DNA of 64,000 nt, taken from contig DFRJ01000002.1 in NCBI GenBank assembly GCA_002378195.1, positions 329,677 to 393,676 of the forward strand, written 5' to 3'. This document shows positions 2,576 to 30,074 of the stretch, piece by piece (position 1 is the first letter of the stretch; every line of letters starts with the position of its first letter). Made by a program: the position numbers and the translations under genes. Under the pieces are notes generated by a model that saw only the letters and a list, made by a program, of their open reading frames with translations, ran no database searches and was not told the DNA's origin. The DNA comes from Patescibacteria group bacterium UBA3466 (lineage in GTDB: Bacteria; Patescibacteriota; Minisyncoccia; Phycocordibacterales; UBA918).

Positions 2576-4540
2576 CTATCCAGTCCAGTTAAAGAGTAAG
2601 ATTGAGAAGTCAGTCAGGTTTACCGACCCATCCAGGTTGATGTCAGCTGGCGGATCCGAATCTCCCCCGTTACTGTTCCACCAGAACAACAAGATCGAGA
2701 AGTCAATCAAGTTAACGCTGCCGTCCCTATTTAAATCAGCGTTAATTGGCAATTCAGCATCCTGTCCTACTCCATAAAAAGTATAGTTTGAGAATTGTGT
2801 TTCCGCTCCACCATCTTGCTCTGACCTAGCCCGAACCTGGTACGTGTCACGACTAAATCCTTGAGTGCTGAGCTCTATACTCCATAGACCTGCACCGTTT
2901 GAGGTTGTCACCAGACTATCGGTAGCGGGCAAATTAATACGACTATTCTCTACTGTCACTGTAGCATTTGGTAGTGCGGAACCAGAAAACGTTACTGTTT
3001 GTCCAGGATCAACCGGATCCGGCGTGACTAATATAGTTGGTGCGATATTAATATTACTCAAAGCAGATGTACGTGCACCAGTCACCGTGAATGATGTGCT
3101 AAAGGTGGAAGATCGAGTGTCGTCACCATCTTCTGCATAGACACCGAAGGTATAAGCCCCTCTAGCAATTTCATCGATAGTAATATCATACTCACCTCGA
3201 CTGTTTGTCCGGGTACTATCTACAAAATTACCATCTACTAATATGGAAACTGTACTGTTGGGGTAAGCATAACCAGACACAACAACCCGACCGTCTCCAC
3301 TTCGATAAGGCGCATCTTCACTTTCAAAACCACCCCCAGCAGACGAGCCTGAGTTACCCCCAGAACCACCTCCGCCTCCTCCGCCGCCTCCTCCGGTACC
3401 ACTAGAACCACCTTCTAGTGGGGCCTCTCCATCGGCTTCACCTTCAGTTCCTCCACCACCATCACCAGTTCCAGTCCCTGAGTCTCCTGATCCAGTACCA
3501 TCACCTTCAGTTGAACCTTCGTCATTGGCTGTACCAGTTGGCTGCTCGTTCACAACAAAGCTAATGATGTAGTCGTCGATATTAAAGTTTCCTTCGTCGT
3601 CGATACATCTAACATAGAAAGTTGCCAACGTTCCCGGCGTCACAGCCACTACCGTTGAATGATAAATCAATCCGGTATTAGAGAATAATTCAGTCATCGA
3701 GCCGAAAGCCGTACCGGCGGTTGTGGAATAGCGACAAAAAGCAAATTCGTCAGTCTCCAGTGAGATTTCCACACTCAAGGTCGTACCTCCCACTGTACTA
3801 GTCGGCGACCCGTTAAAACGATACGGCGGTATCTCTTCGGTAGTATCAATGTTCGGCATCGATACGCGCCTATTTAAAAAGATTACAAAATCTGCGTTAG
3901 CCACCAAGCCACCGTCATATATCTCCATCTGCACATCATGCCGACCAAGTACCGAACTATTAACTATCGGCTCCACATCAGCAGCGGTAGTGGTGGTACC
4001 GGTACTAGTACTGAATCCTGTAGAAGCGGCATTGGCAGTACCGGTATGACTACCGATCCTTAACTCGAGATTAGAGCTAGAAGAAATTCCTGAGTCAGGT
4101 GCCAGAGTATAGCGAATAAAACCTGGGCTCCCAGTTGTAATATCTACCCCGTCCACCCCAGGCGAAGGTGTGGTCGTAGACACTCTCGGTACACCATCTA
4201 CAAACAGCTGTACATTTCGCACATCAAAAGTAGAAGTGGCCAGGATCTCAAAACCGTCTGGAGGAGTGACTTCTATTTGGCTACTCGGTGAAATATCAGT
4301 ATTAAGTACGAATGATAGCGTATGATTGGCCGGAGCGTTTGGTGCCGAATCAGAAATAACATCACTATACTCTAAGATATTTACTGCCGCAGCCTCATTT
4401 GGGAATAGCACAAACACCCAACTCAGCAAAAGAGCCGCGGCTATAGCCAAAAACTTGTATCGGTTGGATACTAAATTCATATTTAATATATTGTACCTTG
4501 TAGACTGCGGTTTTTTTGTCGCATTACACAGTTGTAGCAA
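2576..4540 (-). CDS. Secreted protein with a Gly-rich linker, Ig-like region and a C-terminal type-I dockerin (two Ca-binding repeats)
   Basis: The N-terminus is a signal peptide. A long Gly stretch (GGGGGGGGGGSGG) follows. The C-terminus has DLNRDGSVNLIDFSILLFWW and DINLDGSVNLTDFSILLFNW, which match the dockerin DxNxDGxVNxxD-helix repeat pair. Confidence 0.65.
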   Translation of the reverse strand: MLQLCNATKKPQSTRYNILNMNLVSNRYKFLAIAAALLLSWVFVLFPNEAAAVNILEYSDVISDSAPNAPANHTLSFVLNTDISPSSQIEVTPPDGFEILATSTFDVRNVQLFVDGVPRVSTTTPSPGVDGVDITTGSPGFIRYTLAPDSGISSSSNLELRIGSHTGTANAASTGFSTSTGTTTTAADVEPIVNSSVLGRHDVQMEIYDGGLVANADFVIFLNRRVSMPNIDTTEEIPPYRFNGSPTSTVGGTTLSVEISLETDEFAFCRYSTTAGTAFGSMTELFSNTGLIYHSTVVAVTPGTLATFYVRCIDDEGNFNIDDYIISFVVNEQPTGTANDEGSTEGDGTGSGDSGTGTGDGGGGTEGEADGEAPLEGGSSGTGGGGGGGGGGSGGNSGSSAGGGFESEDAPYRSGDGRVVVSGYAYPNSTVSILVDGNFVDSTRTNSRGEYDITIDEIARGAYTFGVYAEDGDDTRSSTFSTSFTVTGARTSALSNINIAPTILVTPDPVDPGQTVTFSGSALPNATVTVENSRINLPATDSLVTTSNGAGLWSIELSTQGFSRDTYQVRARSEQDGGAETQFSNYTFYGVGQDAELPINADLNRDGSVNLIDFSILLFWWNSNGGDSDPPADINLDGSVNLTDFSILLFNWTG

Positions 4541-4931
4541 CCGGCTCCTTCTGTCGCAGATAGTCGAGTGCGTAGTTTAGGAGTATCAAGACCAACAGCA
4601 GAAACAAAATGCTGGCCAAAACATAAGTCGAGGTGTCAGATCCTTGCGCAGTGCCGCCAGTAGACAGCTCAACGGCAATCTCTCGCTCTCGCAAAGCTGA
4701 CTCCCGCTCTTCAAGTTCACGCTGCTTTTGCGTTAAAGCAGCTGTGTACTTATTAAGTTCAGTCGGTTCAACTGAAGCTGAGGCACCGACTGCGTTGGCC
4801 AGATAGAGCTGTGTGTCGTCAGCCAATTTTGCCGTCGAATCATCAATCAGTCCGCTTACGAACACCAAGACACAAGTACAGACAACGGCCGACACCCGTA
4901 ACAAACTATGATAGACACTATTTTCAATCAT
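4524..4931 (-). CDS. Small membrane protein with a central coiled coil (TM - coiled coil - TM)
   Basis: Two hydrophobic segments flank QKQRELEERESALREREIAVE. I found no recognised family. Confidence 0.4.
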   Translation of the reverse strand: MIENSVYHSLLRVSAVVCTCVLVFVSGLIDDSTAKLADDTQLYLANAVGASASVEPTELNKYTAALTQKQRELEERESALREREIAVELSTGGTAQGSDTSTYVLASILFLLLVLILLNYALDYLRQKEPVATTV

Positions 4932-4948
4932 GCCTCTATTCTAGCAAG

Positions 4949-6028
4949 CTAAGCAAAAAGGGCTAGTAATACGATGAGGAAGAGCGCTGTCACTGTCAGA
5001 GACACAATAACCACCAACAACAAGGCTGAGGAGTTTCCGTTCCGTCTTCGGCGTACCAAGCGTCTACCTTGACTCAAGTGTGCGAGCGATCGACGGATGT
5101 ATAGTTTTACAATAATAAATGTGATCAGCAATAAGACCCCCAACGCTAGAGCCGCCGGCCCAATCACACTCATTGGCAAAATCCAGAAAGAGACTGTGGT
5201 AGACATGGTCTTTTTTGCCCCTAAGTCTCCATACACCGGACTTACAATCGCTTCATAGCGTCCGAAACCTAGTGAATCACCAGTCCAATTTACATTAAGA
5301 AAGTCTCTTGAATCATTTGGAAAGACGGCGGACTGATCCGGATTAAAAGTAATGCTACCGACTTTGTTTCCTAGCATATTGAAAACTTCTAGCGGACCAG
5401 TTGGTCGCACCAGTACGTTTCCCGTGTTTTCAATACGCACCAAGAAATCGACATTTTGTGAACCATACAAAAACTTTGAAGTCGAGAATTGGCGAATACT
5501 AGCTTGCTCAACAGCTTCCCCTGACACCCTGATACTGATGATGTTTGCTACCTGATATCCAACTGCAGCCCCACTCTTTTCAATCTCAGGCGGTTCAACC
5601 GACAAAAACACGCCACCAAAATGACTCCCAGGAGAGGCATTCTCAGGCACCTCCATCGTAAACTCAATATGAACAATACCTTCGCCCGGTATGGTTATTT
5701 GATCGTAAGGCAATGTTATCCAATCGGCCAACTCGTAGCCAGTTACCTCTAAATTGCTCTGGGCGAATATCGGCGATCCACCCTCTCTAACTCCAGAAAT
5801 ATTCCTAGTAAATAGGTAAAAAGTCTGCTCGTTACTGTTTAGATTCTCAACTTTTAGCGAGTAACTATTAACTGCTCCAGGATCAAGCGTTTCTTCAATG
5901 GTGGCCGGGTTAATACTAACGCCAGTACCTTGGGCATGTAGCGAAGCAGGCACCGCATACGCAAGACATAATAAGAATAGTCCGAAAAATAAGTGTTTCA
6001 AGCGGCTAAGACGACAGTTGTAGTGCAT
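4949..6028 (-). CDS. Cell-surface protein with signal peptide and C-terminal TM anchor plus basic tail, reminiscent of the DUF916/CscA class
   Basis: Signal peptide (LCLAYAVPASLHA). Beta-rich body. C-terminal TM followed by RRSLAHLSQGRRLVRRRRNG. The architecture matches DUF916-type surface proteins, but the family assignment is an inference. Confidence 0.45.
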   Translation of the reverse strand: MHYNCRLSRLKHLFFGLFLLCLAYAVPASLHAQGTGVSINPATIEETLDPGAVNSYSLKVENLNSNEQTFYLFTRNISGVREGGSPIFAQSNLEVTGYELADWITLPYDQITIPGEGIVHIEFTMEVPENASPGSHFGGVFLSVEPPEIEKSGAAVGYQVANIISIRVSGEAVEQASIRQFSTSKFLYGSQNVDFLVRIENTGNVLVRPTGPLEVFNMLGNKVGSITFNPDQSAVFPNDSRDFLNVNWTGDSLGFGRYEAIVSPVYGDLGAKKTMSTTVSFWILPMSVIGPAALALGVLLLITFIIVKLYIRRSLAHLSQGRRLVRRRRNGNSSALLLVVIVSLTVTALFLIVLLALFA

Positions 6029-6102
6029 ATAAAGTTTATAAATTCATTAATGATGATTCATTCTACCACCTAAATACACACACCAAATACTGATGTACAC
6101 AC

Positions 6103-6127
6103 AAAAAGCCCCTTGCGGGGCTTTTTG
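6103..6127 (-). terminator. Intrinsic terminator hairpin AGCCCC-TTGC-GGGGCT flanked by A/T runs (for the 6150-7292 gene, and bidirectional)
   Basis: AAAAAGCCCCTTGCGGGGCTTTTTG read directly from the sequence. Confidence 0.7.
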
Positions 6128-6149
6128 TACCTAAATTAATTCGTAGAAA

Positions 6150-7292
6150 CTAGAATGTAGGTGTTGCAATGTAAGTTAGGTTTGTACTGTAGTCATCAGC
6201 CGCTTCTTGCAGAGCTGTGATTTCAACTTGGTAAAGTACGTCAACCTGACCAATGTTTGCTGTTGAGTTATCAGCTGGGTTATTGTGGTGCATAACTTCA
6301 CGTGGTGTAGTTGATGCTGCGATAAACTCATTAGCTGCAAACTCACTTCCGTAGAATCCTCCAACTGAGTTCAAGTCTGCATCGTTAGTGGTTACACCCC
6401 AGTGTCCCCAGGTAGTTGGGTCATTAACATCTGGTGATGGTGAGGCCCATACTGTATCTGACTCTGACTGATCACCGCCTTCGACGAAGGTGTCGATAAT
6501 AGCTCCAGTTGCAGATTCAAGGTCTCCATCTGTCTGTACTGTAACTACGAATCCGTTTCTTGCATTAGTTTGAACGTTCAACCGTTGCGCTAACGCTTCT
6601 GGTTCTCCAGCTACAAGTGTACCGAAATCTAGCAGCACATCTGAAGATGATCCTGTAGTAGAAGTACCATTAACTGCTGTTGATGTGGCAAGACCTGTAA
6701 TAGTGAAGTCGAACACTGTATCAACGATAGCTCGTACTTCAACGCTATCAACGATAGCTACTCGAGTACGACCTGAGTCACCACTAGCAGAGTCAACGAA
6801 GATTTCATATGATCCGAGTGTTGATGGGTTAGTAATAACTCCAGACGCGACTACGATCTCTACTGTATCACCCGCTGATGCTGCGATTCCGTTGATTGTG
6901 AATGAATCATTGTCTGACGCTACAAATGTTGGAGCTGAGAAACCACCTCCGTTTACTTGAAATGTCAGATCAGAGTTATCGCTGATCACTGAGCTAATGT
7001 CCCCGCCTGCGAAGTCTTGGCCGCCGGCACCGTCATCTTGAGCATCGAAAGTAATTTGGATGTTGTTACCTCCAATAATAGCTGATCCGCCAACTGCAGG
7101 AATCGTAAACTCAATTGAATGAGACGGTTGTGCACTCGGAGCTGAATCAGAAATTGTGTTACTAATGTTTGTAAGGTTAGCTGCTTGTGCATTGTTATAG
7201 ATACCGATTGACATCAATACCATTGCACTTGCAACAAGCGTCGCGACCACTCGTTGCGCAAAGCCAACATTGTTAGTTGCTTTTGCGAACAT
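6150..7292 (-). CDS. Secreted Ser/Thr/Gly-rich surface protein, possibly WxL-like (CscB/C-like). The C-terminus NLTYIATPTF only weakly resembles a WxL motif
   Basis: Signal peptide (MVLMSIGIYNNAQA). It lies next to the DUF916-like gene. The repetitive beta-rich composition is consistent; the WxL assignment is tentative. Confidence 0.4.
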   Translation of the reverse strand: MFAKATNNVGFAQRVVATLVASAMVLMSIGIYNNAQAANLTNISNTISDSAPSAQPSHSIEFTIPAVGGSAIIGGNNIQITFDAQDDGAGGQDFAGGDISSVISDNSDLTFQVNGGGFSAPTFVASDNDSFTINGIAASAGDTVEIVVASGVITNPSTLGSYEIFVDSASGDSGRTRVAIVDSVEVRAIVDTVFDFTITGLATSTAVNGTSTTGSSSDVLLDFGTLVAGEPEALAQRLNVQTNARNGFVVTVQTDGDLESATGAIIDTFVEGGDQSESDTVWASPSPDVNDPTTWGHWGVTTNDADLNSVGGFYGSEFAANEFIAASTTPREVMHHNNPADNSTANIGQVDVLYQVEITALQEAADDYSTNLTYIATPTF

Positions 7293-7602
7293 ATTTTTAT
7301 TATTTATATTTTTGTTAAATAACTTTTACTTCGAAGAAATTCTTTGAAGTGTATCGGCTAAACGGGTTTGTGGAGGGACAAATTTCTACGTTTATGAGAA
7401 AAACTCAGCCTTCGTAGTTTTGTCCTATGCTTAACCGATCTTCCACTATTGTACAAAGTCTTTGAGGTTATGTCCGATTTCAGCTGTTGATAACTATTAC
7501 GGACTGACCTTATTTCCCTTAAATTAGCTTATTTTATATGGACATTTTACTTAAGATTGGGACATTTCTTTTTTTGCTTCTAAAATACAAATGTCCAATA
7601 AT

Positions 7603-8859
7603 TTATCTGGCTTTAACCCTTTTCAGATCTGACCACTGAGTCGTATAAGCTGGTGACCTGGTTTCTGATCTTGATTGCCACTCAGCTTTTTTCAGCCGAC
7701 TTCCGATCTGCACCAATTCACTATCCGCTTTCTCATTTAAAATATCGATAGAACTCATGAGGTCTCTCCTGTCTTCTTCTTTGCAATCATTAAACATAGT
7801 AGTCTGACTTCCTCCAGCCGGCACCAAATTAGATAAGCTAACTCCGACTTTTTTATAGGGCACATCTGGCTCATAGAGCCGCTCCACCAAGTTGCTGGCG
7901 ACTTTCATTAAACTAAGTGTATCGCTAGTTGGGTTGATAAATATCGTTTCATCTGAGCCTCCTCTTAGTAGAAAATCTCCATGTCGATTAGTTCCCAGAT
8001 AAACTCTAATATTCAGTGTTTCTTTAGCTATTCTTCGCAGATCTTCTGCTACATGCCGCACATGATAAGCTACTGCATCTTGCAATACCGCCAGCTCCTT
8101 TGTCTCAACTTTGAAGGATCTTGAACTTAAAATACTCTTTTGTTTTCGATCACCCTGCTCTATCAACAAAGCCGGTTCACTACGCAGTTCAGACTGTATT
8201 CTAAGTCCATTTATACCGAATAATTTAGCCACCACCGACCGATCTAGCGCTGTTAAATCAGCCACTGTTTTTAAACCATGCGATCGATAATTGAGCTCGG
8301 AACTAGCGCCCAGTCCCCATATTTCCGCCAATCTTATACCGTCCACCAATCCGTCCCACTCAGTTTCTCCAATAACCCTTACACCTACGCCTTTTTTGGC
8401 TACGGCGTTGGCGTACTTTGCCTGAGTCTTGGTGAGAGACACGCCAATCGAAACGGGTATACCAACCTCTTGCAAGATGATTGATCTCAGATTATTAGCA
8501 ATATCTTCCACCTCAGCCTCTGGCGGTAAAGTAAAGAATGCTTCGTCGACTGAATACTGCTCAACGTTTGCCAGCTCTCGCTTCACTACCTCAAAAACTC
8601 GCTTTGAGATATCTCGATACAGAGCCAAATGCGAAGAGAACGTTACAATTCCCTCTTTTTTAACAATGTCCTTTATCTTAAAATAAGGGACACCCATAGG
8701 GACACCTATGTCCTTTACTTCTTTAGAGCGAGCCACTACACAGCCGTCATTACTTGATAAAACCAGTACCGGAACATTCTTTAATTCGGGCCTAAAGAGT
8801 CTTTCGCAGGATACAAAAAAATTATTACAATCTAACAATCCGATCCACTGCTTTTTCAT
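7603..8859 (-). CDS. umuC: Y-family translesion DNA polymerase, UmuC-like (Pol V catalytic subunit)
   Basis: N-terminal LLDCNNFFVSCERLFRPEL...VLSSNDGCVVARS matches UmuC (LCDVNAFYASCE...VLSNNDGCVIAR). The catalytic SVDEAF motif is present. The C-terminus YTTQWSDLKRVKA matches the UmuC C-terminus YTTRWSDLLRVK. Confidence 0.85.
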   Translation of the reverse strand: MKKQWIGLLDCNNFFVSCERLFRPELKNVPVLVLSSNDGCVVARSKEVKDIGVPMGVPYFKIKDIVKKEGIVTFSSHLALYRDISKRVFEVVKRELANVEQYSVDEAFFTLPPEAEVEDIANNLRSIILQEVGIPVSIGVSLTKTQAKYANAVAKKGVGVRVIGETEWDGLVDGIRLAEIWGLGASSELNYRSHGLKTVADLTALDRSVVAKLFGINGLRIQSELRSEPALLIEQGDRKQKSILSSRSFKVETKELAVLQDAVAYHVRHVAEDLRRIAKETLNIRVYLGTNRHGDFLLRGGSDETIFINPTSDTLSLMKVASNLVERLYEPDVPYKKVGVSLSNLVPAGGSQTTMFNDCKEEDRRDLMSSIDILNEKADSELVQIGSRLKKAEWQSRSETRSPAYTTQWSDLKRVKAR

Positions 8860-8898
8860 CTGCTAATTATAGCCAGCAAATCAGATGGGAGCAATCGA

Positions 8899-10110
8899 TT
8901 AGAAGAGTTTCCACATTTTTTGATCTTCCTCCCCGTCCACCTTGAATACTGCCACCCCCTTGAGGCCATAATCTTCCGCCAACTCGACCTTTTCTTCGAT
9001 TGCTTTAGCGTCACTCCAAGTGATCATTCTGACTGGAATTTCAATACCAGCATAAGTAGCCACCAGAAGAGCTTTAGCCGCTGCTTCAAATCCTTTTGGT
9101 GTATCGTCTGGAGTAGGTAAAGCATTAAAAATTTGCCAAGGGGAATCATCAGGGAAATAGGTTATCACCGCCTCGCCACCATCTGTCCTACCGATTGGTG
9201 AATCGTATTTATCAGCCAGCTCTAGTATCCTAGGCTGGTTTAAAGTAGCCACTAAATCATAGTCTTTGTACCATTCTGGAGCGACAGTAACATCCCAAGC
9301 CCGGCCATAGGTAGCCACTCCGAGCATCACCTTATCTTCATCAAAATCATCCAGAGCAAATTCAACAACTTTCTCCGCCCAATCGATATCAGCTACTGGA
9401 TTGTAAGGCACACCTCGCCTTTCATTATTCAGTTTAATATCAGCTCTCTGCTGGTCATAAGCCATAATTTCTACCCAATCGCAGTGGCGGTTTATAGCTC
9501 GGTAATCATTTGCATATTCAATCTCCGCTGGGACAGCGCGAAACCGTGACTCAGGTGGAGTTCTGGCTTCGATCGTACAAGTCAGCTCGTCTCTTCCCAG
9601 CTCATCCTCCAGCTCTTCTAAAAACTCAGAAAAGTAATCAATGGTTTCGGCCAGCTTTGATTCATAGTCGATGTTGATACCATCAAAATCATTACGCTTA
9701 ACCAGCCTGACGATATCGTCTATATGATCTTCTCTTAAATCATTATCACTTAAGACACTATGTATCGCCTCACCATCAAACCACGCAATGGTTGGAATCA
9801 CCTCAACTCGTCGATCTTCAGCTTCATCCAACAAGTCGTCCCAATGATCATCGTCAAAATCGACACGATTTTTTATATCTCCCAATCCTTCCACCTCATA
9901 AACAAACGGATAAATAATATCGATATCCCTAATGTTATCTAGAGCACTTTCAACACCAGCCTCATCAGCCCACCACGGTATCCAGACACCCACTTCTTGC
10001 CGAGCCTCAGCCACTGCTGGCAAGAAGAAAAAACCGGCTAAAATAATGCCGACATAGAGATGTAGTAATGTATTAACTGATGATCTCATATTCTTTAAGA
10101 CGCAAATCAT
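8899..10110 (-). CDS. Glycoside hydrolase family 18 (chitinase-like) secreted or membrane-anchored protein
   Basis: N-terminal TM/signal. The GH18 catalytic motif FDGINIDYE (DGxDxDxE) is present. MLGVATYGRAW (the YGR region) and GLKGVAVFKVDGEED (C-terminal GH18 motif) are also present. Confidence 0.7.
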   Translation of the reverse strand: MICVLKNMRSSVNTLLHLYVGIILAGFFFLPAVAEARQEVGVWIPWWADEAGVESALDNIRDIDIIYPFVYEVEGLGDIKNRVDFDDDHWDDLLDEAEDRRVEVIPTIAWFDGEAIHSVLSDNDLREDHIDDIVRLVKRNDFDGINIDYESKLAETIDYFSEFLEELEDELGRDELTCTIEARTPPESRFRAVPAEIEYANDYRAINRHCDWVEIMAYDQQRADIKLNNERRGVPYNPVADIDWAEKVVEFALDDFDEDKVMLGVATYGRAWDVTVAPEWYKDYDLVATLNQPRILELADKYDSPIGRTDGGEAVITYFPDDSPWQIFNALPTPDDTPKGFEAAAKALLVATYAGIEIPVRMITWSDAKAIEEKVELAEDYGLKGVAVFKVDGEEDQKMWKLF

Positions 10111-10139
10111 TTCAGTTTCTTACAAATTTTATTAAATTA

Positions 10140-10589
10140 TTACAACAAAGTACGCGCGCTACCCGTCACCACACCCCAAATATAACAATCCTCCATCTCA
10201 TTAACTGCAATTGGTTCATAACCGACCTGCTCGGAGACCAACACCATAGCCCCAGATATCATTTTTAGGCGCTTTACCACCATTTCACCATACACTGCTG
10301 CCACCACAATATGACCATCTTTTGGTGTGACTGATCTGTCCACCACCAGGATATCGTTATCAAAAATCTTGGCTCCTTCCATCGAATCACCAGATACACG
10401 CACAAAAAAGGTGGCCGACTCGTTTTGCACTAGCAAATCATTGATGTTTAGTGACTTTTCCACTAAATCATCACCGGGAGCAGGGAAACCGGCGGCAGGC
10501 TGGCTGGCATACAAAGGATGTTCTGTAGCCTGATTTATATCAGCCATTGAGATGCTTTTAACTACAGTTTCTTTAGGCTGGTTGCTCAT
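10140..10589 (-). CDS. umuD: UmuD-like S24 peptidase (LexA C-terminal-domain fold without an N-terminal HTH)
   Basis: Ser-Lys dyad context: VRVSGDSMEGAKIFDNDILVVD ... VVKRLK. The likely autocleavage site is AAG|F. At 149 aa it has no room for a DNA-binding domain. Confidence 0.75.
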   Translation of the reverse strand: MSNQPKETVVKSISMADINQATEHPLYASQPAAGFPAPGDDLVEKSLNINDLLVQNESATFFVRVSGDSMEGAKIFDNDILVVDRSVTPKDGHIVVAAVYGEMVVKRLKMISGAMVLVSEQVGYEPIAVNEMEDCYIWGVVTGSARTLL

Positions 10590-10628
10590 TTCAATAACAA
10601 GTATACCTGAATATTGTTAGAGCGTGAA
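10590..10628 (-). promoter_or_regulatory. Inverted repeat TAACAA-N13-TTGTTA (contains GTATAC) immediately upstream of umuD; candidate SOS-type operator
   Basis: Read directly from the sequence. It matches no known LexA-box consensus, so the role is speculative. Confidence 0.25.
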
Positions 10629-11735
10629 TTAGGCTATAATCGCCCCCGTGGTCAGAAGTGAATGGGCATACCATAGTCCTCCCATACCAATCAGTAACAC
10701 AAATCCGTAGGCAACTTGTTCAAAATGTAGTCGTCTAGCCTCTTGTACTATAGAAACCCCCAACATTGACACAATTAAGACAGATAACGCTAAGTACACC
10801 AGCTGCAACATTGTATTAGGTTGAGTCATAAAGGAAGACAAGGTGGCTCCAGCATGAGACTCGGGAGTATGAGAAACCTGCGCTGCTACCAAACCAGAAG
10901 AAGTGGCAATCACTGGAGCTTCCATCACCACCACTTCTTCACCCTCAGGTGTAGTTGCAACATACACCACATCAGATTCTAGTGATTCTGATCCTGTAAC
11001 ACTATCAGCAGTTTCGTCCGGCTCGACTTCAACCAACACGGGAGGAACCTCCACCTGTTCAGGTACTACCTCAGAAACCGTTTTCTCTGCAACGATGTCT
11101 ACAACTTCAGGCAATGGCGTAGCTGTTTCTGCTACCGCCAACTCCACAGCCTCGGGTTCGATCGTTACTTCAGCTAGTGATTCGGGGATATCATCAACCA
11201 CTGCAGGAGTACCGAATAATTGCACTACATAGACGGTCTCGTAACCATCAAATTCACCTTTGTAGGTACCGACGCCAATTTCTGTGTACAAATTACTAAC
11301 AATGTTCTGACGGTGGGTCGGCGAATCCATCCAGGCTTCAACCACTTCCGAAGAATCGGTAAAGTGAATAGCCAGATTTTCTCCTGCGTGGGCGTAGACG
11401 TAACCCGCTTGATCAAACCAATGCCACGGAGAAACTCCATCTGGACTAAAGTGAGAGAAATACTCATTCTTGGCCATGTGCTTAGCCTTCATTCGTGCCG
11501 CCTCATCAAGCACTGCATTTCGCTTTAGAGGCATGGCAGCATTATCAGCCCGCTCTTCGTTGGTTAAATCAACCACCACTGAAGGCAAAACGGTGGACAC
11601 TAACCACTCTGAAGACTGCCATAAAATTGCGTGCAAATTAGCCCCAACAAATGTCAAAAGGATCAGCGCCGCCATCAGCGTAGCCGAAATCTTTTGCAGC
11701 TTATCCAGTCCCCTTCTGGTGGTTTTTTTAAACAT
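10629..11735 (-). CDS. CAP/SCP (YkwD-like) domain protein with N-terminal signal anchor, Glu/Val/Pro-rich linker and C-terminal TM segments
   Basis: YFSHFSPDG...HAGENLA...WMDSPTHRQNIVSNLYTEIGVG matches the YkwD/CAP signature. Confidence 0.75.
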   Translation of the reverse strand: MFKKTTRRGLDKLQKISATLMAALILLTFVGANLHAILWQSSEWLVSTVLPSVVVDLTNEERADNAAMPLKRNAVLDEAARMKAKHMAKNEYFSHFSPDGVSPWHWFDQAGYVYAHAGENLAIHFTDSSEVVEAWMDSPTHRQNIVSNLYTEIGVGTYKGEFDGYETVYVVQLFGTPAVVDDIPESLAEVTIEPEAVELAVAETATPLPEVVDIVAEKTVSEVVPEQVEVPPVLVEVEPDETADSVTGSESLESDVVYVATTPEGEEVVVMEAPVIATSSGLVAAQVSHTPESHAGATLSSFMTQPNTMLQLVYLALSVLIVSMLGVSIVQEARRLHFEQVAYGFVLLIGMGGLWYAHSLLTTGAIIA

Positions 11736-11794
11736 GAAGCTCTTTAAAAGTTGTATATATTTAACTATAAATAACTATTTTGTCAATATATAAC

Positions 11795-11823
11795 AAAAAG
11801 ACCCTGTGGAAAGGGTCTTTTTG
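11795..11823 (-). terminator. Intrinsic terminator (AAAAAGACCCTGTGGAAAGGGTCTTTTTG) after the giant surface-protein gene
   Basis: GC hairpin plus T-run, read directly from the sequence. Confidence 0.7.
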
Positions 11824-11837
11824 CTATCTGACTATAG

Positions 11838-14800
11838 TTAGTCGATATCGACGTTCGAATCAAGGTCTTCTCCTTCAAAGTCAGGATACTCCTCGCTTCC
11901 CGGACAAACTATATCATTGATCTTCCAACGCGTTGTTTTGTAAACAAATCCAGTTGGGTCACTGTGCGGAACAATTCCCTTCTCAAACCAAGGAACTAGG
12001 ATTTCGTCGCTGTAGTTCAATTGGAATTGCTTAACGGCTGCGTCTGTCGCTGCGTCAAACTCACCAGTTACCGCCACGTCGTAGCCCATTACGATACTGA
12101 GGAACATCTGTAGCTTAGTCACTTCCCAACGATCATTTTCCCATCCAACTTGCATGAAATCGATAATGAATGGGCACTGATTCACAGTCGAAGCACCGAG
12201 TACAATTCCTTCTGGAGCTGGTTCAGTTGTTCTGGTTCTAGTTCCAGATGAACTACCGCCAGATGAAGTTTCTTCCTCAGGCTCTTCTGGTTCTTCAGGC
12301 TCTTCTTCCACCACCTGATTTACAAAGTCACAACGGTTACCTTCGTAGATTGGCTCATCAATAACGATCAGAGCCGACAAGCTGTTTCCAATTGTAGTGA
12401 AAATTGATTCGTCCTCGATATAGAACTCACACGACATACTGTCAGTGTCTCCAGTTAACACCTGTAGGTTCTGTCTCACTTCTACTTGCTCATAACCAGC
12501 TGGCATCGCTTCAACCACCACATAGTCATCGCCAAGCAATACGTCGAAGTAATAGTAACCAGTATCATCGGTTGAAGTTGAGGCGATTACATTACCTTCT
12601 CCATCTTCTAGGTAGATAGTCCATCCAGCTTCAGGAACTTCTTGCGCATCTACTAACAAGTACTTGTAACCATCGATTCTTTCAGTCGGCTCTTCAGACA
12701 GAGCGTTGTAGAAGTCACATGTGTATGGTGTCTCATCGTCCATAGACAAGCCTTCGCTACCATACTGCTTTGGATCAAATTCTAGATAACAAGATTCGTA
12801 ACCTTCGCCATTAATGAAGTCATACTCACCTTCATACTCGACTCCGACCTGGTACCAGCCTAGTTGCATAACTTCTGAGACTTCATAATCTCCAACTGGT
12901 GCGTAGAAGTAGTAGTAACCACTGTCGTCAGTTGTAGTTGAGGTGATAAGTTCTTGGTCTTCGTAAAGCTCAATTGTCCAGCCAGCTAGCGGTGTTGCGT
13001 ACTCTGGATCGCCTTCAAACTTATAACCTTCGATCAACATCATGTCTGACGTATCATCGTCACAAGGAACGATAGTTTCTTCATGAATGTCAAAACGGAA
13101 TCCGTCAGATTGAGTATCGACCCACAGTCGGAAGTCTACTCCGTCATAATCTGGAGTCGCGACATCTGAACCATCGTCAGTCGGAACGTTATTAGTTTCA
13201 GAGTGATTCTCTAGCTTGAAACTACCTGAAAGATTACTGAAGTTAGTAATTCCTGCGTCTCGTACTTCAATTCGAGCGTCAATCCATTCATTGTTGGTAT
13301 TACCTCCAGGATTATGCTTACCGTACAACGCCACCTTAACTGTTCCACCTTCTCGACTCACAAACAGACCTGATTTATTACCTGGGTCATCGAAGTTAGT
13401 CACCGTGTGCGGGTCGTTGATCATGGTTGCTGAGGTCTCTCCAGATTCGATAATAGAAACTGGGAACCATTCACCAAATTCAACTGTAGTGTAAGCAGCA
13501 TCACCAAGGATAACTTGCTCATTTAAATGTCCGTTACCAGTATTACCAGTTTCATTCAAGATTACTCGTGCTTCCACAGTCGCCTTACATTCCGGACAGT
13601 TATACTCTTCACCATTGTTTACCTCCACAGCCACAGCGTCTTCACCAGTGGTTAGGTAAAACTCGAAATCTACTCCCTCGTCACCATTCTTATCGAAGAT
13701 GTCAGGATAGCTACTATCCTCAGGATCCTCTAGTTCCCAACCAGGAACCGGACCTCGATCTACTGCCCCAAGATCAATACCTTGAGTCATAATGTTTCCA
13801 AAGGCATAATCGAACTGAGATCCATTATTTCCTCCGCTGATAGCTAACCGGAGATCAGTGCCGTTTCTTTCAACTGCAATTCCGTCCACATCAAGCGCAA
13901 AGCTATTGATAGTTGCATCTCCCACCTCGTCAAAATTGAACCAGGTTCCGGCAGGAATCACATTGTCTTCGTCTCCTAGGTAAATATTCCCATCAAATGA
14001 TACTGATTCAGGAGCATTATCAAGCGAGATCTTTACTAGACGTAAGTCAGTACACTGATTGTCGAGCGTACAATAATCTGTACAGTCGGTGTCACCCGGC
14101 TCACACATTTCCCATCCAGTTACTTCACCGTCACCACAATAAGAGGCGTAGTCTGGCTCCTCAGGCTCTGGCACGTAAGGAATCTCACACAAATCTCCTT
14201 CACCTTCAATTACCAGTTCGTAATACAGTCCAGCCGGGTTATTGGCAGGATTACTGTTACCTGCAAAATTTTCCACCACTACCGACAATTCGTTATTTCC
14301 ACTCTGAATTAGGCCAGTAACATCATACTCCTTAGTAGCAGTATGGTTCACACCACCCAATTCTTCTCCGGCCAGAGCGTCGTTTAGTGAGGCAGAGAAA
14401 TTATTGTCAGCCGCGATATACAGGGTAGCTTCAGTCAAAACGTCACCATTCCAACCAAATTGATTTACAAAAGTCTGTGTTTCTGACTCACTCGGGTTTT
14501 GCGGACCTTGATCTCCCCAGATCCACTCTGCAAGTGGCAATGATTCAGTCCAATTGTCATGGATAAAATCTAGCACTACTGCAAGAGCTCCGTCCTTTTC
14601 AACCACCGTATTTGTATCATCACTCTTAATTGTCACTGTACACTGGGTTGGTACTTCTGGCTCTTCACAGCTTCCGTCAATAATAGTAATCGCGTCAAGA
14701 TCGAAACCGTCACCGTTTGATCCTTGCACACCATTTGACTGGTCCACCAACTTAACAAACTTAACAAAGTCCAGATTGGTATCAGCAATATCAACAGTTC

Positions 14801-16493
14801 CGTCTCCAGTAAGAGTATCGGCTAGTTCGAAGTTAATTCCATCCTCAGACAGATAAACATCAATCATTTCCCCTGTAGCATCAGTGCCTCCGGTAATTTC
14901 CCAGATAGCAATATCTGCACCGGCCTGATCGACAGCGATCTTGTTATCGAATTCATACACCAATTCTCCATTGATACCCATTGAATAGAAGTCTAATGGA
15001 TTCACTTCCCAATCACTCCCCTCGCTACCAAAGAAGTTTGAATATGGTGCTACACCAGCTTCAACAGCTGCCACATCACCTCTAGCAGCATCTACAGCAC
15101 CACCGCCATTTGTTAGACCTTGAATGTGAGACACCACCTGCCCTTCGTAAGTACATACTGACGGAGCTTCGGGCTCTTCTGTTTCTTTCAAGAAGTAAGC
15201 TCGAGCCACCGGTGTGAGCTGTTGCACGAAAGAAGGTGCAACTTGTAGGGTGCTGAGTGCTAGTTGAGGCACTTCTGGGATGTCGATGTAGTCATACTGA
15301 CCATCAATGTCATTAACTACAATACTTGGACCAGCATTGATGTTGTCAGTAAAGATGTGTGGGATGTCGGCACCTTCGTTATGTGTACTGGTATTGGCAA
15401 TATTAAGCACTGAAGGTGATGTAACCTCAAAACCTGGCGCCACATTAATACCGTGCCAGCCGTTATTTTCGGTTGTAATATCACTTGCGTCTACAGTCGA
15501 ACCGTTAACCACGATTCCACTACCTTCAAAATCCTTAACAGTTACATTTTCTAGAGTAATATCGATTGATTCGTAGATATTAATTCCATGCAATTGCTCA
15601 GGCCAAGGCTGATCACCACTGCTCATCAACACAACATCTTTTACAGTCACACCGTCAGTATTGGTAATACCCAACACAGCGTTGTTACTATTGCTAGTTT
15701 TCACAAACTGACCGTCTACGGTAAAACCGTTACCGTCTAGCACAATCGCCTTTGTGATGCTTGTTTGTTCTGTAGTAGAGATGTCAGCTGTCAGCTCAAT
15801 TGTTTCTCCAGCTTCAGTTGTAGCTGCATCAATTGCTTCTTGAATAGTCGCAAAAAATAGATCATCCTCTACATTTCGAACCGTTCCTGCAGGTGCAATT
15901 GGAGTACCGGTAACTACAACATTATCTAGCTTGAACACCTCGTTACTAGTGAAGAAAGCGTTAAATTGTAGCAGTACGCTTGGCTTATCATCCATATCAG
16001 ATGACAAATTGATCTCAGTTAGCGTCCAATCAGAAGTATCGTCACCATCGCCGTCAGAGTAAGTTTTTACTACATCTGCGCCAGTTGGAATAGTCCCTGG
16101 AGTAGCTCGCAGTGTAACACTTTCGCCTGCTTCCAGGTTATCAAGCTGGTAGTAATATGAAACCTTGATGTCTTCATATCCCACAGTTGAAAAACCTGCC
16201 CGTAGTAAAGCATCGGTTGGTGAGGTGGTAGATACCTGGGCGCGGATGTTTCCTTCTTGTGCTCCAGCCGCATTGTTTACGGTTGCCCAAGCGTCACCGA
16301 CTAAAGCTCCGATCCAGTTGCTAAAATCTTCAGTCTCAAAACTGTCTGAAAACAGTACGTCTGGTGCAGCCGCCTCAGCAACATTAAAATTGAAAAAAGT
16401 CGCAGGCACTGCGCTCACTAGTAATGACACGATAGTAAGAGCGGCAAATAGCTTTGCCGAAAATCTCCCCTTCGTCAGAGAATTAATATTCAT
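11838..16493 (-). CDS. Giant (1551 aa) secreted multidomain surface protein: signal peptide, right-handed beta-helix (PbH1-like) repeats, Cys-containing modules, two tandem CnaB/SdrD-B-like repeats, a PEEPEEPEEPEEE linker, and a C-terminal peptidoglycan-binding (PG_binding_1-like) domain
   Basis: Beta-helix rungs (NNAVLGITNTDGVTVKDVVL...NVTVKDFEGSGIVVNGSTV). Repeats GWTIELYEDQELITSTTTDDSGYYYFYAPVGDYEV and GWTIYLEDGEGNVIASTSTDDTGYYYFDVLLGDDYVV. The C-terminus VTGEFDAATDAAVKQFQLNY matches the PG-binding motif. Confidence 0.7.
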   Translation of the reverse strand: MNINSLTKGRFSAKLFAALTIVSLLVSAVPATFFNFNVAEAAAPDVLFSDSFETEDFSNWIGALVGDAWATVNNAAGAQEGNIRAQVSTTSPTDALLRAGFSTVGYEDIKVSYYYQLDNLEAGESVTLRATPGTIPTGADVVKTYSDGDGDDTSDWTLTEINLSSDMDDKPSVLLQFNAFFTSNEVFKLDNVVVTGTPIAPAGTVRNVEDDLFFATIQEAIDAATTEAGETIELTADISTTEQTSITKAIVLDGNGFTVDGQFVKTSNSNNAVLGITNTDGVTVKDVVLMSSGDQPWPEQLHGINIYESIDITLENVTVKDFEGSGIVVNGSTVDASDITTENNGWHGINVAPGFEVTSPSVLNIANTSTHNEGADIPHIFTDNINAGPSIVVNDIDGQYDYIDIPEVPQLALSTLQVAPSFVQQLTPVARAYFLKETEEPEAPSVCTYEGQVVSHIQGLTNGGGAVDAARGDVAAVEAGVAPYSNFFGSEGSDWEVNPLDFYSMGINGELVYEFDNKIAVDQAGADIAIWEITGGTDATGEMIDVYLSEDGINFELADTLTGDGTVDIADTNLDFVKFVKLVDQSNGVQGSNGDGFDLDAITIIDGSCEEPEVPTQCTVTIKSDDTNTVVEKDGALAVVLDFIHDNWTESLPLAEWIWGDQGPQNPSESETQTFVNQFGWNGDVLTEATLYIAADNNFSASLNDALAGEELGGVNHTATKEYDVTGLIQSGNNELSVVVENFAGNSNPANNPAGLYYELVIEGEGDLCEIPYVPEPEEPDYASYCGDGEVTGWEMCEPGDTDCTDYCTLDNQCTDLRLVKISLDNAPESVSFDGNIYLGDEDNVIPAGTWFNFDEVGDATINSFALDVDGIAVERNGTDLRLAISGGNNGSQFDYAFGNIMTQGIDLGAVDRGPVPGWELEDPEDSSYPDIFDKNGDEGVDFEFYLTTGEDAVAVEVNNGEEYNCPECKATVEARVILNETGNTGNGHLNEQVILGDAAYTTVEFGEWFPVSIIESGETSATMINDPHTVTNFDDPGNKSGLFVSREGGTVKVALYGKHNPGGNTNNEWIDARIEVRDAGITNFSNLSGSFKLENHSETNNVPTDDGSDVATPDYDGVDFRLWVDTQSDGFRFDIHEETIVPCDDDTSDMMLIEGYKFEGDPEYATPLAGWTIELYEDQELITSTTTDDSGYYYFYAPVGDYEVSEVMQLGWYQVGVEYEGEYDFINGEGYESCYLEFDPKQYGSEGLSMDDETPYTCDFYNALSEEPTERIDGYKYLLVDAQEVPEAGWTIYLEDGEGNVIASTSTDDTGYYYFDVLLGDDYVVVEAMPAGYEQVEVRQNLQVLTGDTDSMSCEFYIEDESIFTTIGNSLSALIVIDEPIYEGNRCDFVNQVVEEEPEEPEEPEEETSSGGSSSGTRTRTTEPAPEGIVLGASTVNQCPFIIDFMQVGWENDRWEVTKLQMFLSIVMGYDVAVTGEFDAATDAAVKQFQLNYSDEILVPWFEKGIVPHSDPTGFVYKTTRWKINDIVCPGSEEYPDFEGEDLDSNVDID

Positions 16494-16616: not shown

Positions 16617-17537
16617 CTAACGATCAGCCTCTTTTGCCGGCATACGCCGCACCGACTGGATTGAAGCACAAACGCTTTTATTGGTGCTAGAAGCCACTAA
16701 TTCAGCCCTCTCCGGCACACCAGCTCTTATTTCTATCTCGTCGGCATGTTCACGCATTCTTTTTATAAACATATCTCGCTCGTAACGCATCTCTTCTAAG
16801 GACATCGCCCTATCCATCATCCACGGAAAAGCGCCGCAGGCATAAAATCTACCGCTATCAACATCAGATGATCGACCGATCAGTCTAACTATTTTCTGCG
16901 TAGCCAATAGAGTCAAATCACGCTCGTTTAGCTCACTCACATCCATTACCCAGCGCCCACCATCAACGTCAACAAACACTACTGTCGTACTAGGTACCGT
17001 ATCCTCAAACACTCTCTGACCTAATAGACGACCTTCCGCTGGGGCTTGCCAGAGCTTTTGCTCCATCTTTTCTTGTGACATGTACATTTTGATATGAGTA
17101 CCGAGAGCATTATCAACCACATGCCCCAAATCGCTCGCCTGTAACAAAACTCCGACTACCACGCTCATAGCAACACTACTCCCTACAATCATCCAAGCTG
17201 GATACCTGTAACCCCTCACTGTGTGTCTTATATTAAAGGTTGCAAAATAGGCCATCAAACCAAACACCAAAAACCATAAATACGGCAAAGCTTCCACCAT
17301 AAATGTTAGCCAGTTGTCATGGGTTGCCTCATAAAAAGCATACTGACGGTTCATTACCACAAAGAGAGATACGGCTACGGCCATGGCCCCAACCACCACT
17401 GACAACACCCAAAACAACCAGACCGAACACTCTCGACACAGGAAAAAGAATCGTGACTTTGGACACACCTGCTCTGACTCGATTCTTTTAAAGAGCGCGT
17501 CTTTCAGATTATTCTCGTTTTGATCTGGCTTTTTCAT
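16617..17537 (-). CDS. Membrane protein, putative anti-sigma factor. It has a short cytoplasmic N-terminal Cys motif (C-x10-C-x2-C), then TM helices and an extracytoplasmic domain
   Basis: It lies directly downstream of, and is probably co-transcribed with, the ECF sigma gene. The topology fits; there is no sequence-family match by eye. Confidence 0.45.
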   Translation of the reverse strand: MKKPDQNENNLKDALFKRIESEQVCPKSRFFFLCRECSVWLFWVLSVVVGAMAVAVSLFVVMNRQYAFYEATHDNWLTFMVEALPYLWFLVFGLMAYFATFNIRHTVRGYRYPAWMIVGSSVAMSVVVGVLLQASDLGHVVDNALGTHIKMYMSQEKMEQKLWQAPAEGRLLGQRVFEDTVPSTTVVFVDVDGGRWVMDVSELNERDLTLLATQKIVRLIGRSSDVDSGRFYACGAFPWMMDRAMSLEEMRYERDMFIKRMREHADEIEIRAGVPERAELVASSTNKSVCASIQSVRRMPAKEADR

Positions 17538-17551
17538 AACTATTCACAACC

Positions 17552-18136
17552 TTATATACGTAACTTCTCAGTATTTAATACATTTTGTAGCTGCTTTTTG
17601 CCTCGATGCAATAGCGTACCCACTGACCCCACCGGTATCTTCAAAATATCAGATATCTCATCGTATTCTTTATGTTCAAAAAAACGCAATATGATTACTT
17701 CTCGATACTTATTATCAAGCTGTAGCAATGCTCTATTTAAAACCTCCGCATTGATACCCTGGTCAAACACCACGTCCGCGGCATCTTCCTTCGCGCTCAA
17801 AAAAGAAATAACTTCTTCTCCATCAGCGATCAAATGTCCTTCAGGACGCACATTCTTCTTCCGATACCAACTAATCGCCTCATTGTGGGCAATCCGATAG
17901 ACCCACGAAGAAAACTTCAGAGAAGTATCGAAGCCATTGATATTGCGATAGGTTTTCAAGAAAATGTCTTGTAGGACATCACTTTGGTCTTCTGGATCCC
18001 GTACACCTAGACGGGCGATATACCTAGTTAATTTTGCTTGATAGCGATCCACCAAAACACCAAAGTGCTCTTTGTCACTAATAGTTAACTTTACGATCTC
18101 TTCATCGCTTGGTGGAAGTTCGGGTGTACCGTCCAT
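17552..18136 (-). CDS. ECF-type sigma-70 family RNA polymerase sigma factor
   Basis: Region 2 (DVLQDIFLKTYRNINGF...WVYRIAHNEAISWYRKK). Region 4 HTH (REVIILRFFEHKEYDEISDILKIPVGSVGTLLHRGKKQL). Confidence 0.8.
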   Translation of the reverse strand: MDGTPELPPSDEEIVKLTISDKEHFGVLVDRYQAKLTRYIARLGVRDPEDQSDVLQDIFLKTYRNINGFDTSLKFSSWVYRIAHNEAISWYRKKNVRPEGHLIADGEEVISFLSAKEDAADVVFDQGINAEVLNRALLQLDNKYREVIILRFFEHKEYDEISDILKIPVGSVGTLLHRGKKQLQNVLNTEKLRI

Positions 18137-21300: not shown

Positions 21301-22209
21301 ATGGCAACAATGGGTAAATTTTCATTAATGAACGGGAATATTGTTCCTACCGAAGAAGCCACTGTTTCAGTGGCTAGCTCAGCTGTTTTATACGGACTCA
21401 GCGTATACTCTGTCTTCTTTGGCAAACACACCCCAGACGGCATGTTGTGCTTTAGGATCCCAGATCACATTAAGCGACTCCAACAATCAGCTCGCATGAT
21501 TGGCCTCACCGGCACAACTCAGACTCTTGAGAAAGAACCGTTAGTTGAAGAAATCAAAGAGCTGATTGCTATGAACAAACCAACCACTGACCAATTCTTC
21601 AGAGTCACTGTACACGCCGTGTCAGAGGTAGCTGGCGTGCGCACCTCAGATTTAGACTTGGTGACTTCAGTCTTTATGTACGACGCGGTCAATATTTTGC
21701 CGCAAGATCAGGCCAAGCTAAAGACCAGCCTCTGGCGTCGTACGGCCGATACTGCCATCCCTGCTCGAGCCAAGGTGAATGGTGCTTACGTTAATTCGGC
21801 TCTAGCTAAGCAAGACGCTATCGACGCCGGTTTTGATGACTGCTTATTCTTAAATCAAAATGGCTATGTGAGCGAGCTCAGTGCGGCTAACATTTTTATG
21901 ATTAAACGTGGTGAATTGATCACTCCTGACTGCGCTTCAGACATCTTAGAAGGGATCACTCGCCGCAGCATTATCGAACTGGCCGAACAGAAAGGAATGA
22001 AGATTTGTGAGCGCAAGGTCGCTCTCACTGAAATGTATACCGCTGATGAAGTGTTCGCTTGTGGCACCTCAGCTTTTGTGTCACCAATCGTAAATATTGA
22101 CGGACGGATAATTTCCGACGGTACCAGCGGCAAGTACACTAATGATCTCCGTCAACAATTAGCCGACGCTCAAGCTGATCTGACAAGTGACTGGACCACC
22201 TTACTCTAA
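21301..22209 (+). CDS. Class IV (fold type IV) aminotransferase, either branched-chain amino-acid or D-amino-acid aminotransferase
   Basis: Length and motifs match (EGITRRSIIELAEQKGMKICERKV...ADEVFACGTSAFVSPIVNIDGR). The N-terminus resembles IlvE/Dat. Confidence 0.7.
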   Translation: MATMGKFSLMNGNIVPTEEATVSVASSAVLYGLSVYSVFFGKHTPDGMLCFRIPDHIKRLQQSARMIGLTGTTQTLEKEPLVEEIKELIAMNKPTTDQFFRVTVHAVSEVAGVRTSDLDLVTSVFMYDAVNILPQDQAKLKTSLWRRTADTAIPARAKVNGAYVNSALAKQDAIDAGFDDCLFLNQNGYVSELSAANIFMIKRGELITPDCASDILEGITRRSIIELAEQKGMKICERKVALTEMYTADEVFACGTSAFVSPIVNIDGRIISDGTSGKYTNDLRQQLADAQADLTSDWTTLL

Positions 22210-29567: not shown

Positions 29568-30074
29568 TCAAATCGTATTAAAGTAATCCCAAACAGTAGC
29601 CAAACTTTGCCAAAGTTCACCATCACCATCGACCGCCGTGCCGCACGAATCTAAGAAATACGTCTCACCGGCTACGGTAATTTCATAAATTAGATCCAGT
29701 CCATCAACATCAGAATTACAACTTTCCGGATCAACCGGCTCAGATTCAATCGCCAGCGCTTCTGGTGTTAAATTAACTTTTAACTGCCTACTAATATTTA
29801 ACGGCAACACACCTTCACGAGTCAGTCGCTCACCATTGTCATCAGCACCATAAATAACACGATACTCACCATCATTATTAACATGAAAAGACGGACAAAC
29901 ATTCCGACACCCACCATACATGTCAGCAGTTACCGAAAACTCAGTCAAGGCGATACGATCATCAGCCACTCCGTTATTAACCAACGGCAAAAAACCAGTG
30001 GTATAGAAATATGCTCCGGTAAAAATCCCAGCGATTAAAGTAATAACTACACTCAGCCAATCCTGCTTATACAT
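29568..30074 (-). CDS. Secreted or membrane-anchored hypothetical protein (N-terminal TM, several Cys)
   Basis: ORF with an N-terminal hydrophobic segment. Confidence 0.45.
   Translation of the reverse strand: MYKQDWLSVVITLIAGIFTGAYFYTTGFLPLVNNGVADDRIALTEFSVTADMYGGCRNVCPSFHVNNDGEYRVIYGADDNGERLTREGVLPLNISRQLKVNLTPEALAIESEPVDPESCNSDVDGLDLIYEITVAGETYFLDSCGTAVDGDGELWQSLATVWDYFNTI

Follow-up and report, generated by a model that had tools for sequence, protein, structure and literature searches.

Umu genes of a Patescibacteria lineage are split by an extracytoplasmic GH18 gene that has its own promoter-like element

Introduction

Why does a gene for a secreted glycoside hydrolase lie between the two genes of a mutagenic DNA polymerase? 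In a 64,000-nucleotide (nt) stretch from the genome of Patescibacteria group bacterium UBA3466 (contig DFRJ01000002.1, positions 329,677 to 393,676; hereafter the window, in whose own numbering positions are given), a umuD-type gene and a umuC-type gene, which together form a DNA polymerase V (Pol V) pair, are separated by a gene of glycoside hydrolase family 18 (GH18). A first-pass annotation of this DNA read the three genes as probably co-transcribed, proposed the 25-bp inverted repeat TAACAA-N13-TTGTTA upstream of umuD as a candidate operator, and accordingly expected GH18 to be co-expressed upon DNA damage. In such a single SOS operon, all three genes would be repressed through the repeat. 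The shared strand, the short gaps without a terminator-like site in the window, and the position of the repeat over the predicted −10 box and spacer of umuD, which would suit a repressor well, all speak for this arrangement.

A 2017 paper is said to deal with the SOS network of Patescibacteria. Our literature search returned nothing relevant on LexA in Parcubacteria, on leaderless mRNA in Patescibacteria, or on umuC/umuD in the Candidate Phyla Radiation.

Here we compared the locus with its relatives and arrived at a different answer. With a rough probability of 60%, the locus would consist of three tightly packed units, each with its own promoter, that are held together by inherited synteny within a neighborhood of envelope genes.

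Results

The umuD and umuC genes form a Pol V pair on either side of GH18

The coordinates of the genes are given in Table 1. Peptidase_S24 is the sole Pfam domain of the umuD-type protein (PF00717, residues 25-141, E = 1.5e-27, 96 bits against a threshold of 23.3). The protein passes the NCBIfam model of the Pol V autoproteolytic subunit (NF007621, 140.2 bits, cut-off 110) and fails the LexA equivalog model (67 bits, cut-off 111), and its top match in the PDB is Escherichia coli UmuD (8gmt, E = 1.4e-25). In the alignment with E. coli UmuD, Ala33-Gly34-Phe-Pro stands opposite Cys24-Gly25-Phe-Pro, which marks the predicted cleavage site. Among 56 non-redundant sequences (the window and 55 orthologs), A33 and G34, as well as S69 and K106 of the Ser69/Lys106 dyad, are at least 95% conserved. 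Unlike LexA, CI, and UmuDAb, the protein has no N-terminal DNA-binding domain.

The umuC-type protein contains the Pfam domains IMS (PF00817, 117 bits), IMS_C (PF11799, 59 bits), and DUF4113 (PF13438, 46.6 bits). UmuC is its best NCBIfam model (NF002955), at 255.8 bits, which is under the enterobacterial cut-off of 431 set for that model; the DinB models reach 152 bits at most, well below the UmuC score. The catalytic carboxylates Asp10 and Asp105-Glu106 are at least 95% conserved among 38 sequences, and we take them, by matching known motifs, to be D6, D101, and E102 of the E. coli protein.

By the longest open reading frames (ORFs), the gaps between umuD and GH18 and between GH18 and umuC measure 29 nt and 39 nt, respectively, in agreement with the 30-40 bp first given. 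The spacing of an upstream motif described below, however, puts the probable GH18 start at ATG 10089, so that the first gap becomes 50 nt. Read from this ATG (MRSSVNT...), the protein is left with a typical Sec-type signal, namely a hydrophobic core followed by AEA|R.

We also searched the 64-kb window and all loci described below with E. coli LexA and RecA by tblastn, and only the UmuD-like S24 domain was matched. The gene identities proposed in the first-pass annotation therefore stand: a UmuD-like S24 peptidase without helix-turn-helix (HTH) and with an AG cleavage context, a clear UmuC homolog on the same strand, a full-length GH18 gene with a signal between the two, and no lexA inside the window.

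The gene order is conserved within a larger block

One genome scan, together with one metagenome scan run with a 10-sequence GH18 alignment, yielded 89 loci of Patescibacteria, of which 72 are non-redundant (cited by L numbers where needed), and neighboring genes were called by tblastn with the window proteins. The relatives are labeled Candidatus Nomurabacteria, Kaiserbacteria, Paceibacteria/Paceibacterota, or Patescibacteria. The GH18 protein of the window is identical to a cluster on marine contigs, TARA Oceans among them.

Of the 48 loci whose upstream flank is 1.4 kb or longer, 42 have a UmuD-type gene on the upstream side of GH18; of the 33 whose downstream flank is 3.4 kb or longer, 30 have a UmuC-type gene on the downstream side. 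Where UmuD and sufficient flank are present, UmuC is found in 28/29 loci. The umuD-GH18-umuC synteny, which had been suggested for checking in relatives, thus recurs widely. What is kept, moreover, is the whole block CAP - umuD - GH18 - umuC - orf380 - orf359, down to 56% identity in GH18 and about 40% in UmuC, and the CAP gene keeps its place ahead of umuD in almost every locus. Since the entire block is conserved, the synteny of the three genes is old and real, yet not specific to them. The split arrangement of the Pol V genes is lineage-wide in Patescibacteria and previously undescribed.

In one locus (L008:5486-7206), CAP-umuD-GH18 is kept and glycosyltransferase-like genes, recognized by eye, replace the downstream umuC; this is the sole such case in 29. 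GH18 orthologs also occur without a nearby umu gene, in six loci whose upstream flank reaches 1.4 kb or more (L089, L092, L100, L103, L106, and L116). In L092, L098, and L100, which hold no umu genes, the order is MetRS, alpha/beta hydrolase, GH18, TatD-like, where MetRS and TatD were recognized by eye from N-terminal motifs and the hydrolase from Pfam.

Each of the three genes is preceded by a conserved promoter-like element

Nearly every one of the 60 aligned loci, including 10 without umuD, carries upstream of GH18 the two-block motif TG(A/T)AAGA-N14-CGTC(A/T)T. Its distance to the gene is fixed: in 47/60 loci, the offset between CGTC and ATG is 13 nt when counted from the C of CGTC (CGTC-N9-ATG). 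In the window, likewise, ATG 10089 comes nine nt after CGTC, a leaderless geometry. Where umuD and GH18 are parted by 244-839 nt, the motif adjoins GH18, not umuD, and in 19/58 loci its −35 block overlaps the umuD stop codon (G-TAA-GA).

The motif is also nearly confined to this gene. In the 637 kb of fetched loci (1.3 Mb counting both strands), the pattern G[AT]AAGA-N14-16-CGTC occurs 82 times, 81 times at a GH18 start and once elsewhere. The window holds a single exact match (10099-10123), and its one-mismatch matches occur at chance frequency (8 against 6.7 expected), which gives no sign of a wider regulon there.

The promoters of one class of extracytoplasmic function (ECF) sigma factors in Bacillus subtilis have a −35 element tgaAAC and a −10 element CGTC (PMC5758882). 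Compared with the ECF consensus (AAC core, spacer of about 16-17 nt, −10 CGT(C/A)), the GH18 element has a nearly invariant CGTC, an AAG core, and a spacer of 14-15 nt. We read it as a putative promoter of the ECF (envelope-stress) class.

The umuD orthologs mostly carry TATACT (at times TATAAT or TACACT) 6-9 nt before the start codon and directly past the CAP stop codon. A consensus scan of the window places the umuD ATG 10 nt downstream of the −10 box, which is near-leaderless. Further, about 30 non-redundant umuC orthologs carry TTGgTATA(A/C)T, usually with the TTG-n extension, 6-7 nt before the ATG, and the window umuC has its ATG (8859) six nt after the −10 box, again in leaderless geometry. 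In about one third of the 61 large ORFs of the window, a TAnnnT box stands 5-10 nt ahead of the first start codon (examples in Table 1). This recurrence of the −10-to-ATG geometry suggests that leaderless mRNAs may be a general habit of the genome from which the window comes.

GH18 and umuC are separated by hairpins or inserted genes in most relatives

To a start of umuC, the GH18 stop codon is no further than 150 nt in 20/43 loci, and in the other 23/43 the two genes are parted by 0.4-2 kb of inserted DNA. In 16/20 loci of the short-gap group, the DNA from the GH18 stop to the −10 box of umuC contains a stem-loop followed by a T-rich tail. Among the loci with inserts, L009 carries a NUDIX hydrolase gene on the opposite strand (L009:7218-7712, minus), and the same insert was recognized by eye, from the common intergenic sequence, in L040, L047, L048, L060, L063, L066, L067, L075, L078, and L082. 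In this NUDIX sub-lineage, −10 boxes stand back to back, with about 6-8 nt between each box and its start codon. In L006, an opposite-strand prepilin-like gene lies between GH18 and umuC.

On the other side of GH18, the umuD stop is within 100 nt of the GH18 start in 46/58 loci, and this closeness goes along with the GH18-specific promoter-like element. Downstream of the umuC stop, the window has an imperfect hairpin (Table 1) that is a possible terminator of the umuC unit; it is without a clear T-run and was not scored as a canonical terminator.

The hairpins and inserts in relatives indicate that coupling of GH18 to umuC is not under conserved selection, and read-through into umuC would clearly not be a conserved property of these loci. 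An internal promoter and a terminator were what the first-pass annotation had named beforehand as speaking against an operon, and in silico both kinds of feature appear: promoter-like elements precede GH18 and umuC in the window, and hairpins separate these genes in the short-gap relatives. Probable co-transcription of the three genes is thus not borne out. Nor does damage-inducible co-expression of GH18 find support, because the GH18 element appears to be of the ECF class and is present also in loci without umuD or umuC.

The inverted repeat upstream of umuD is a chance feature

The 25-bp repeat does exist at the site described (Table 1). Its arms measure only 6 nt, however, and perfect repeats with 6-nt arms and spacers of 0-20 nt number 577 in the 64-kb window, a density of 0.9 per 100 nt; in 24 of these, the spacer is 13 nt long. 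Such a repeat is contained in 20% of random 60-nt stretches, and a similar one also overlies the umuC promoter. TAACAA-N13-TTGTTA is unique in the window as an exact match; with up to two mismatches allowed, there are 6 matches against 4.8 expected, so the further copies that one might look for are not in excess.

The repeat was found neither upstream of any umuD ortholog nor in the umuC promoters. L001, the closest relative, retains TAACAA and lacks the second arm. We then enumerated dyads (4-6-nt arms, spacer 0-16) between −70 and +3 in 62 non-redundant umuD/umuC promoters, and none rose above shuffles: the commonest dyad occurred in 4 sequences, which equals the maximum of the shuffled sets. 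In the same promoters aligned on the −10 box, information lies only in that box, in the TTG/TG extension (umuC), and in a weak −35 (umuD). Since orthologs lack it, no dyad is enriched, and 577 like repeats lie in the window, the repeat is a species-specific chance feature and not an operator. Among the 4-6-nt dyads examined, no LexA-box-like palindrome is common to the Pol V promoters of the lineage.

GH18 resembles peptidoglycan hydrolases of the YaaH/YdhD/SleL type

The GH18 domain is recognized by Pfam (PF00704, E = 4e-26, 92.9 bits against a threshold of 29.6). Its motif reads FDG(I/V)NIDYE (FDGINIDYE in the window), that is, DGxNxDxE. The intact DGxDxDxE first ascribed to this protein is therefore not there: an Asn (Asn146) replaces the second Asp and is invariant in 10 orthologs. 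The catalytic D-x-E is kept, with D148 and E150 invariant in the same set. At the second-Asp position, the nearest solved relatives, 4q6t and 3cz8, also have a residue other than Asp. A profile search of solved structures ranked 4q6t, YdhD of B. subtilis (3cz8), 4wiw, 5jh8, YaaH (4s3k), and SleL (4s3j) above the classical chitinases. Mean column identity is 71% among the 10 orthologs, compared with 41-57% identity for UmuC, making GH18 more conserved than its neighbors.

By this likeness, GH18 is placed in the YaaH/YdhD/SleL subgroup of peptidoglycan hydrolases, and its family resemblance indicates that it is probably a peptidoglycan-directed N-acetylglucosaminidase rather than a chitinase. 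With YaaH (SleL) and YdhD of Bacillus spores it shares the replaced second Asp and the retained D-x-E, and 3cz8, 4s3k, 4s3j, and 4q6t are the closest solved sequences. It differs from that family in having a Sec-type signal and no LysM domains, and in its host, which does not form spores. The Bacillaceae proteins, which are its nearest homologs in genomes beyond Patescibacteria, are only 22-25% identical to it.

An ECF sigma factor gene and surface protein genes lie nearby

An ECF sigma factor gene, followed by a gene for a 306-amino-acid (aa) partner that is possibly an anti-sigma factor, lies upstream of the locus (Table 1). The synteny of this pair with the CAP-umuD-GH18-umuC block extends to L055 (843-2339), L058 (407-1904), L067, and L003. 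The neighboring sigma factor is a candidate regulator of the GH18 promoter.

The CAP gene upstream of umuD matches Pfam CAP (E = 1.5e-19) and the NCBIfam YkwD family (4.4e-33, below cut-off). More widely, genes for secreted or surface proteins surround umuD and umuC in a run (2576-7292 and 10629-16493, minus strand), most of them without family assignment. The run includes a 1551-aa protein with faint adhesin-type domains, the CAP/YkwD protein, orf380, orf359 (a weak WxLIP_PGBD match), orf135, and a dockerin-like protein of 654 aa. A giant-protein gene (7532 residues by the public gene call, with DUF2341/Laminin_G_3 repeats) occupies positions 1-445 of the window and continues past its low end; such a gene is also seen at L120:19718-21212.

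Table 1. Positions of genes and predicted elements at the umuD-GH18-umuC locus (numbering of the window)
Feature	Position	Strand	Remarks
umuD-type gene	10140-10589	minus	S24 autoproteolytic subunit, 149 aa, without HTH
GH18 gene	8899-10110	minus	403 aa by longest ORF; probable start 10089, ~396 aa
umuC-type Y-family polymerase gene	7603-8859	minus	418 aa
CAP/YkwD-family secreted protein gene	10629-11735	minus	upstream neighbor; belongs to conserved block
Predicted sigma-70-type umuD promoter	10600-10628	minus	−35 TTCACG (10628-10623), 17-nt spacer, −10 TATACT (10605-10600)
Predicted ECF-sigma-type GH18 promoter	10099-10124	minus	−35 TGTAAGAA (10124-10117), −10 CGTC (10102-10099)
Predicted umuC promoter	8866-8894	minus	−35 TTGCTC (8894-8889), 17-nt spacer, −10 TATAAT (8871-8866)
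Inverted repeat TAACAA-N13-TTGTTA	10595-10619		6-nt arms; overlaps umuD −10 box and spacer; judged a chance repeat
Hairpin after umuC stop	7560-7596	minus	15-nt arms, 87% complementary, 7-nt loop, imperfect
ECF sigma factor gene	17552-18136	minus	Pfam Sigma70_r2 and r4_2; 7.5 kb upstream
306-aa partner gene	16617-17537	minus	no Pfam match; follows ECF sigma gene; possible anti-sigma
ORFs with TAnnnT box, examples	2006-2488, 4524-4931, 11838-16493, 29568-30074, 43437-44570	minus	
ORF with TAnnnT box, example	21301-22209	plus	

Discussion

The reading that we favor is that a chromosomal umuD...umuC (Pol V) pair has been split by a housekeeping-type extracytoplasmic GH18 gene carrying its own promoter. 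Transcription would start at or next to the start codon of each gene, from TATACT before umuD, TGWAAGA-N14-CGTC before GH18, and TGnTATAAT before umuC. The order would have been kept by descent in a larger block made up of ECF sigma, partner, giant surface protein, CAP, umuD, GH18, umuC, orf380, and orf359.

Several points weigh against this reading. All three promoters are predicted from sequence, and the −35 of the GH18 element reads AAG instead of the ECF-typical AAC, with a spacer about 1 nt shorter. The GH18 motif was not found upstream of the neighboring ECF sigma gene in the window, L055, or L058; we therefore make no claim that this is the cognate sigma factor. Unlike most relatives, the window has no terminator-like hairpin in either gap (50 nt and 39 nt), so read-through into umuC is possible there, and transcripts from the umuD or GH18 promoter may in part cover the next gene as well. 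Our dyad test would miss a LexA protein whose site is very degenerate or not a palindrome. Moreover, GH18 has long stayed in its exact place between umuD and umuC, for which inherited synteny is the only explanation offered, and a weak one.

The main remaining alternative starts from the bare gaps. The three genes would have their own promoters, and where terminators are lacking, transcription would in part continue from the umuD promoter into GH18 and from the ECF-type GH18 promoter into umuC. We regard this as unlikely, while taking it seriously for terminator-less genomes: hairpins are missing not only from the window gaps but also from L001, L004, L044, and L045, and the closeness of umuD to GH18, including the overlap of the −35 block with the umuD stop, fits as well. 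In the larger part of the relatives, by contrast, a hairpin follows GH18 in the short gaps, and over half of the loci have inserted DNA or genes between GH18 and umuC. If such read-through did occur, UmuC dosage would also respond to envelope stress.

The assignment of the GH18 motif as a promoter can be questioned in its own right. A dedicated transcription factor might use TGWAAGA-N14-CGTC as its operator, or the motif might act within the mRNA and control GH18 translation on a bicistronic umuD-GH18 transcript, as its departure from the AAC core, its practical restriction to GH18, and its absence upstream of the nearby ECF sigma gene would allow. We consider this improbable. The fixed two-block geometry mirrors the −10-to-ATG spacing of the leaderless promoters of sigma-70 type, and the motif persists in another gene context, where no upstream gene could supply the transcript. 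By eye, the blocks are not complementary in most sequences (CGTCAT versus AAAGA). An RNA element at the locus was rejected, as Rfam gave no match at E ≤ 1 over 7300-10800.

A more far-reaching version of read-through holds that the interleaving is functional, Pol V being wired to envelope stress, instead of or besides LexA, through transcription from the GH18 promoter into umuC wherever, as in the window, no terminator stands in between. Such wiring is a long shot; were it true, the ECF sigma-surface proteins-umuD-GH18-umuC block would be a unit that ties mutagenic translesion synthesis to damage of the cell wall or to host contact in the reduced genome of an episymbiont. Least probable of all is the single SOS operon with a damage-induced GH18, given a repeat at chance frequency that orthologs do not share, 62 promoters without a common dyad, conserved promoter-like elements before GH18 and umuC, and terminators or opposite-strand genes between these two in most relatives.

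Compared with the LexA-regulated umuDC of E. coli, three independently promoted units would be a variation on a familiar theme. In both systems, the two genes share a strand and umuD comes first. The UmuD-type S24 subunits have in common the Ala/Cys-Gly cleavage site and the Ser-Lys dyad, and the UmuC-type polymerases, of the Y family, both end in DUF4113. In contrast to E. coli, the window genes are neither adjacent nor overlapping, as a 1.2-kb unrelated gene with its own predicted promoter lies between them; umuC has a conserved promoter-like element of its own, no SOS-box-like palindrome is conserved, UmuC scores under the NCBIfam UmuC cut-off, and the mRNAs are predicted to be leaderless. 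A precedent may come from Acinetobacter, for which multiple umuD/umuC copies and LexA-independent control by UmuDAb/DdrR/EppR are reported (PMC11332147, PMC12242105). These loci resemble ours in having Pol V genes without a classical LexA box and in a non-canonical organization. They differ in that the window UmuD has no DNA-binding N-terminal domain and that no conserved operator was found here.

The GH18 element, for its part, can be set beside the B. subtilis sigmaM/X/V/W promoters (PMC5758882). It shares with them the two blocks, a tgaAAC-like −35 and a −10 CGTC, as well as an extracytoplasmic cell-wall enzyme gene as the target and an ECF sigma gene nearby. It differs in its AAG core, in a spacer of about 15 nt versus 16-17, in a predicted transcription start at the start codon, and in that the neighboring ECF sigma gene has upstream of it no copy of the motif that could serve autoregulation.

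Taken together, the locus amounts to the known umuDC in a different organization, joined by a target gene of ECF type that looks ordinary. The analysis mainly removes the tempting and unsupported story of an SOS-induced chitinase, and the gain that remains is modest but real. The single-target motif of ECF class and the widespread leaderless geometry can serve as annotation aids, for start codons and operon boundaries, in uncultured Patescibacteria. With no LexA-type operator detected at either Pol V promoter, one may ask what keeps a mutagenic polymerase in check in this lineage. Both Pol V subunits are under purifying selection, which indicates that translesion synthesis has been retained in the small genomes of Patescibacteria.

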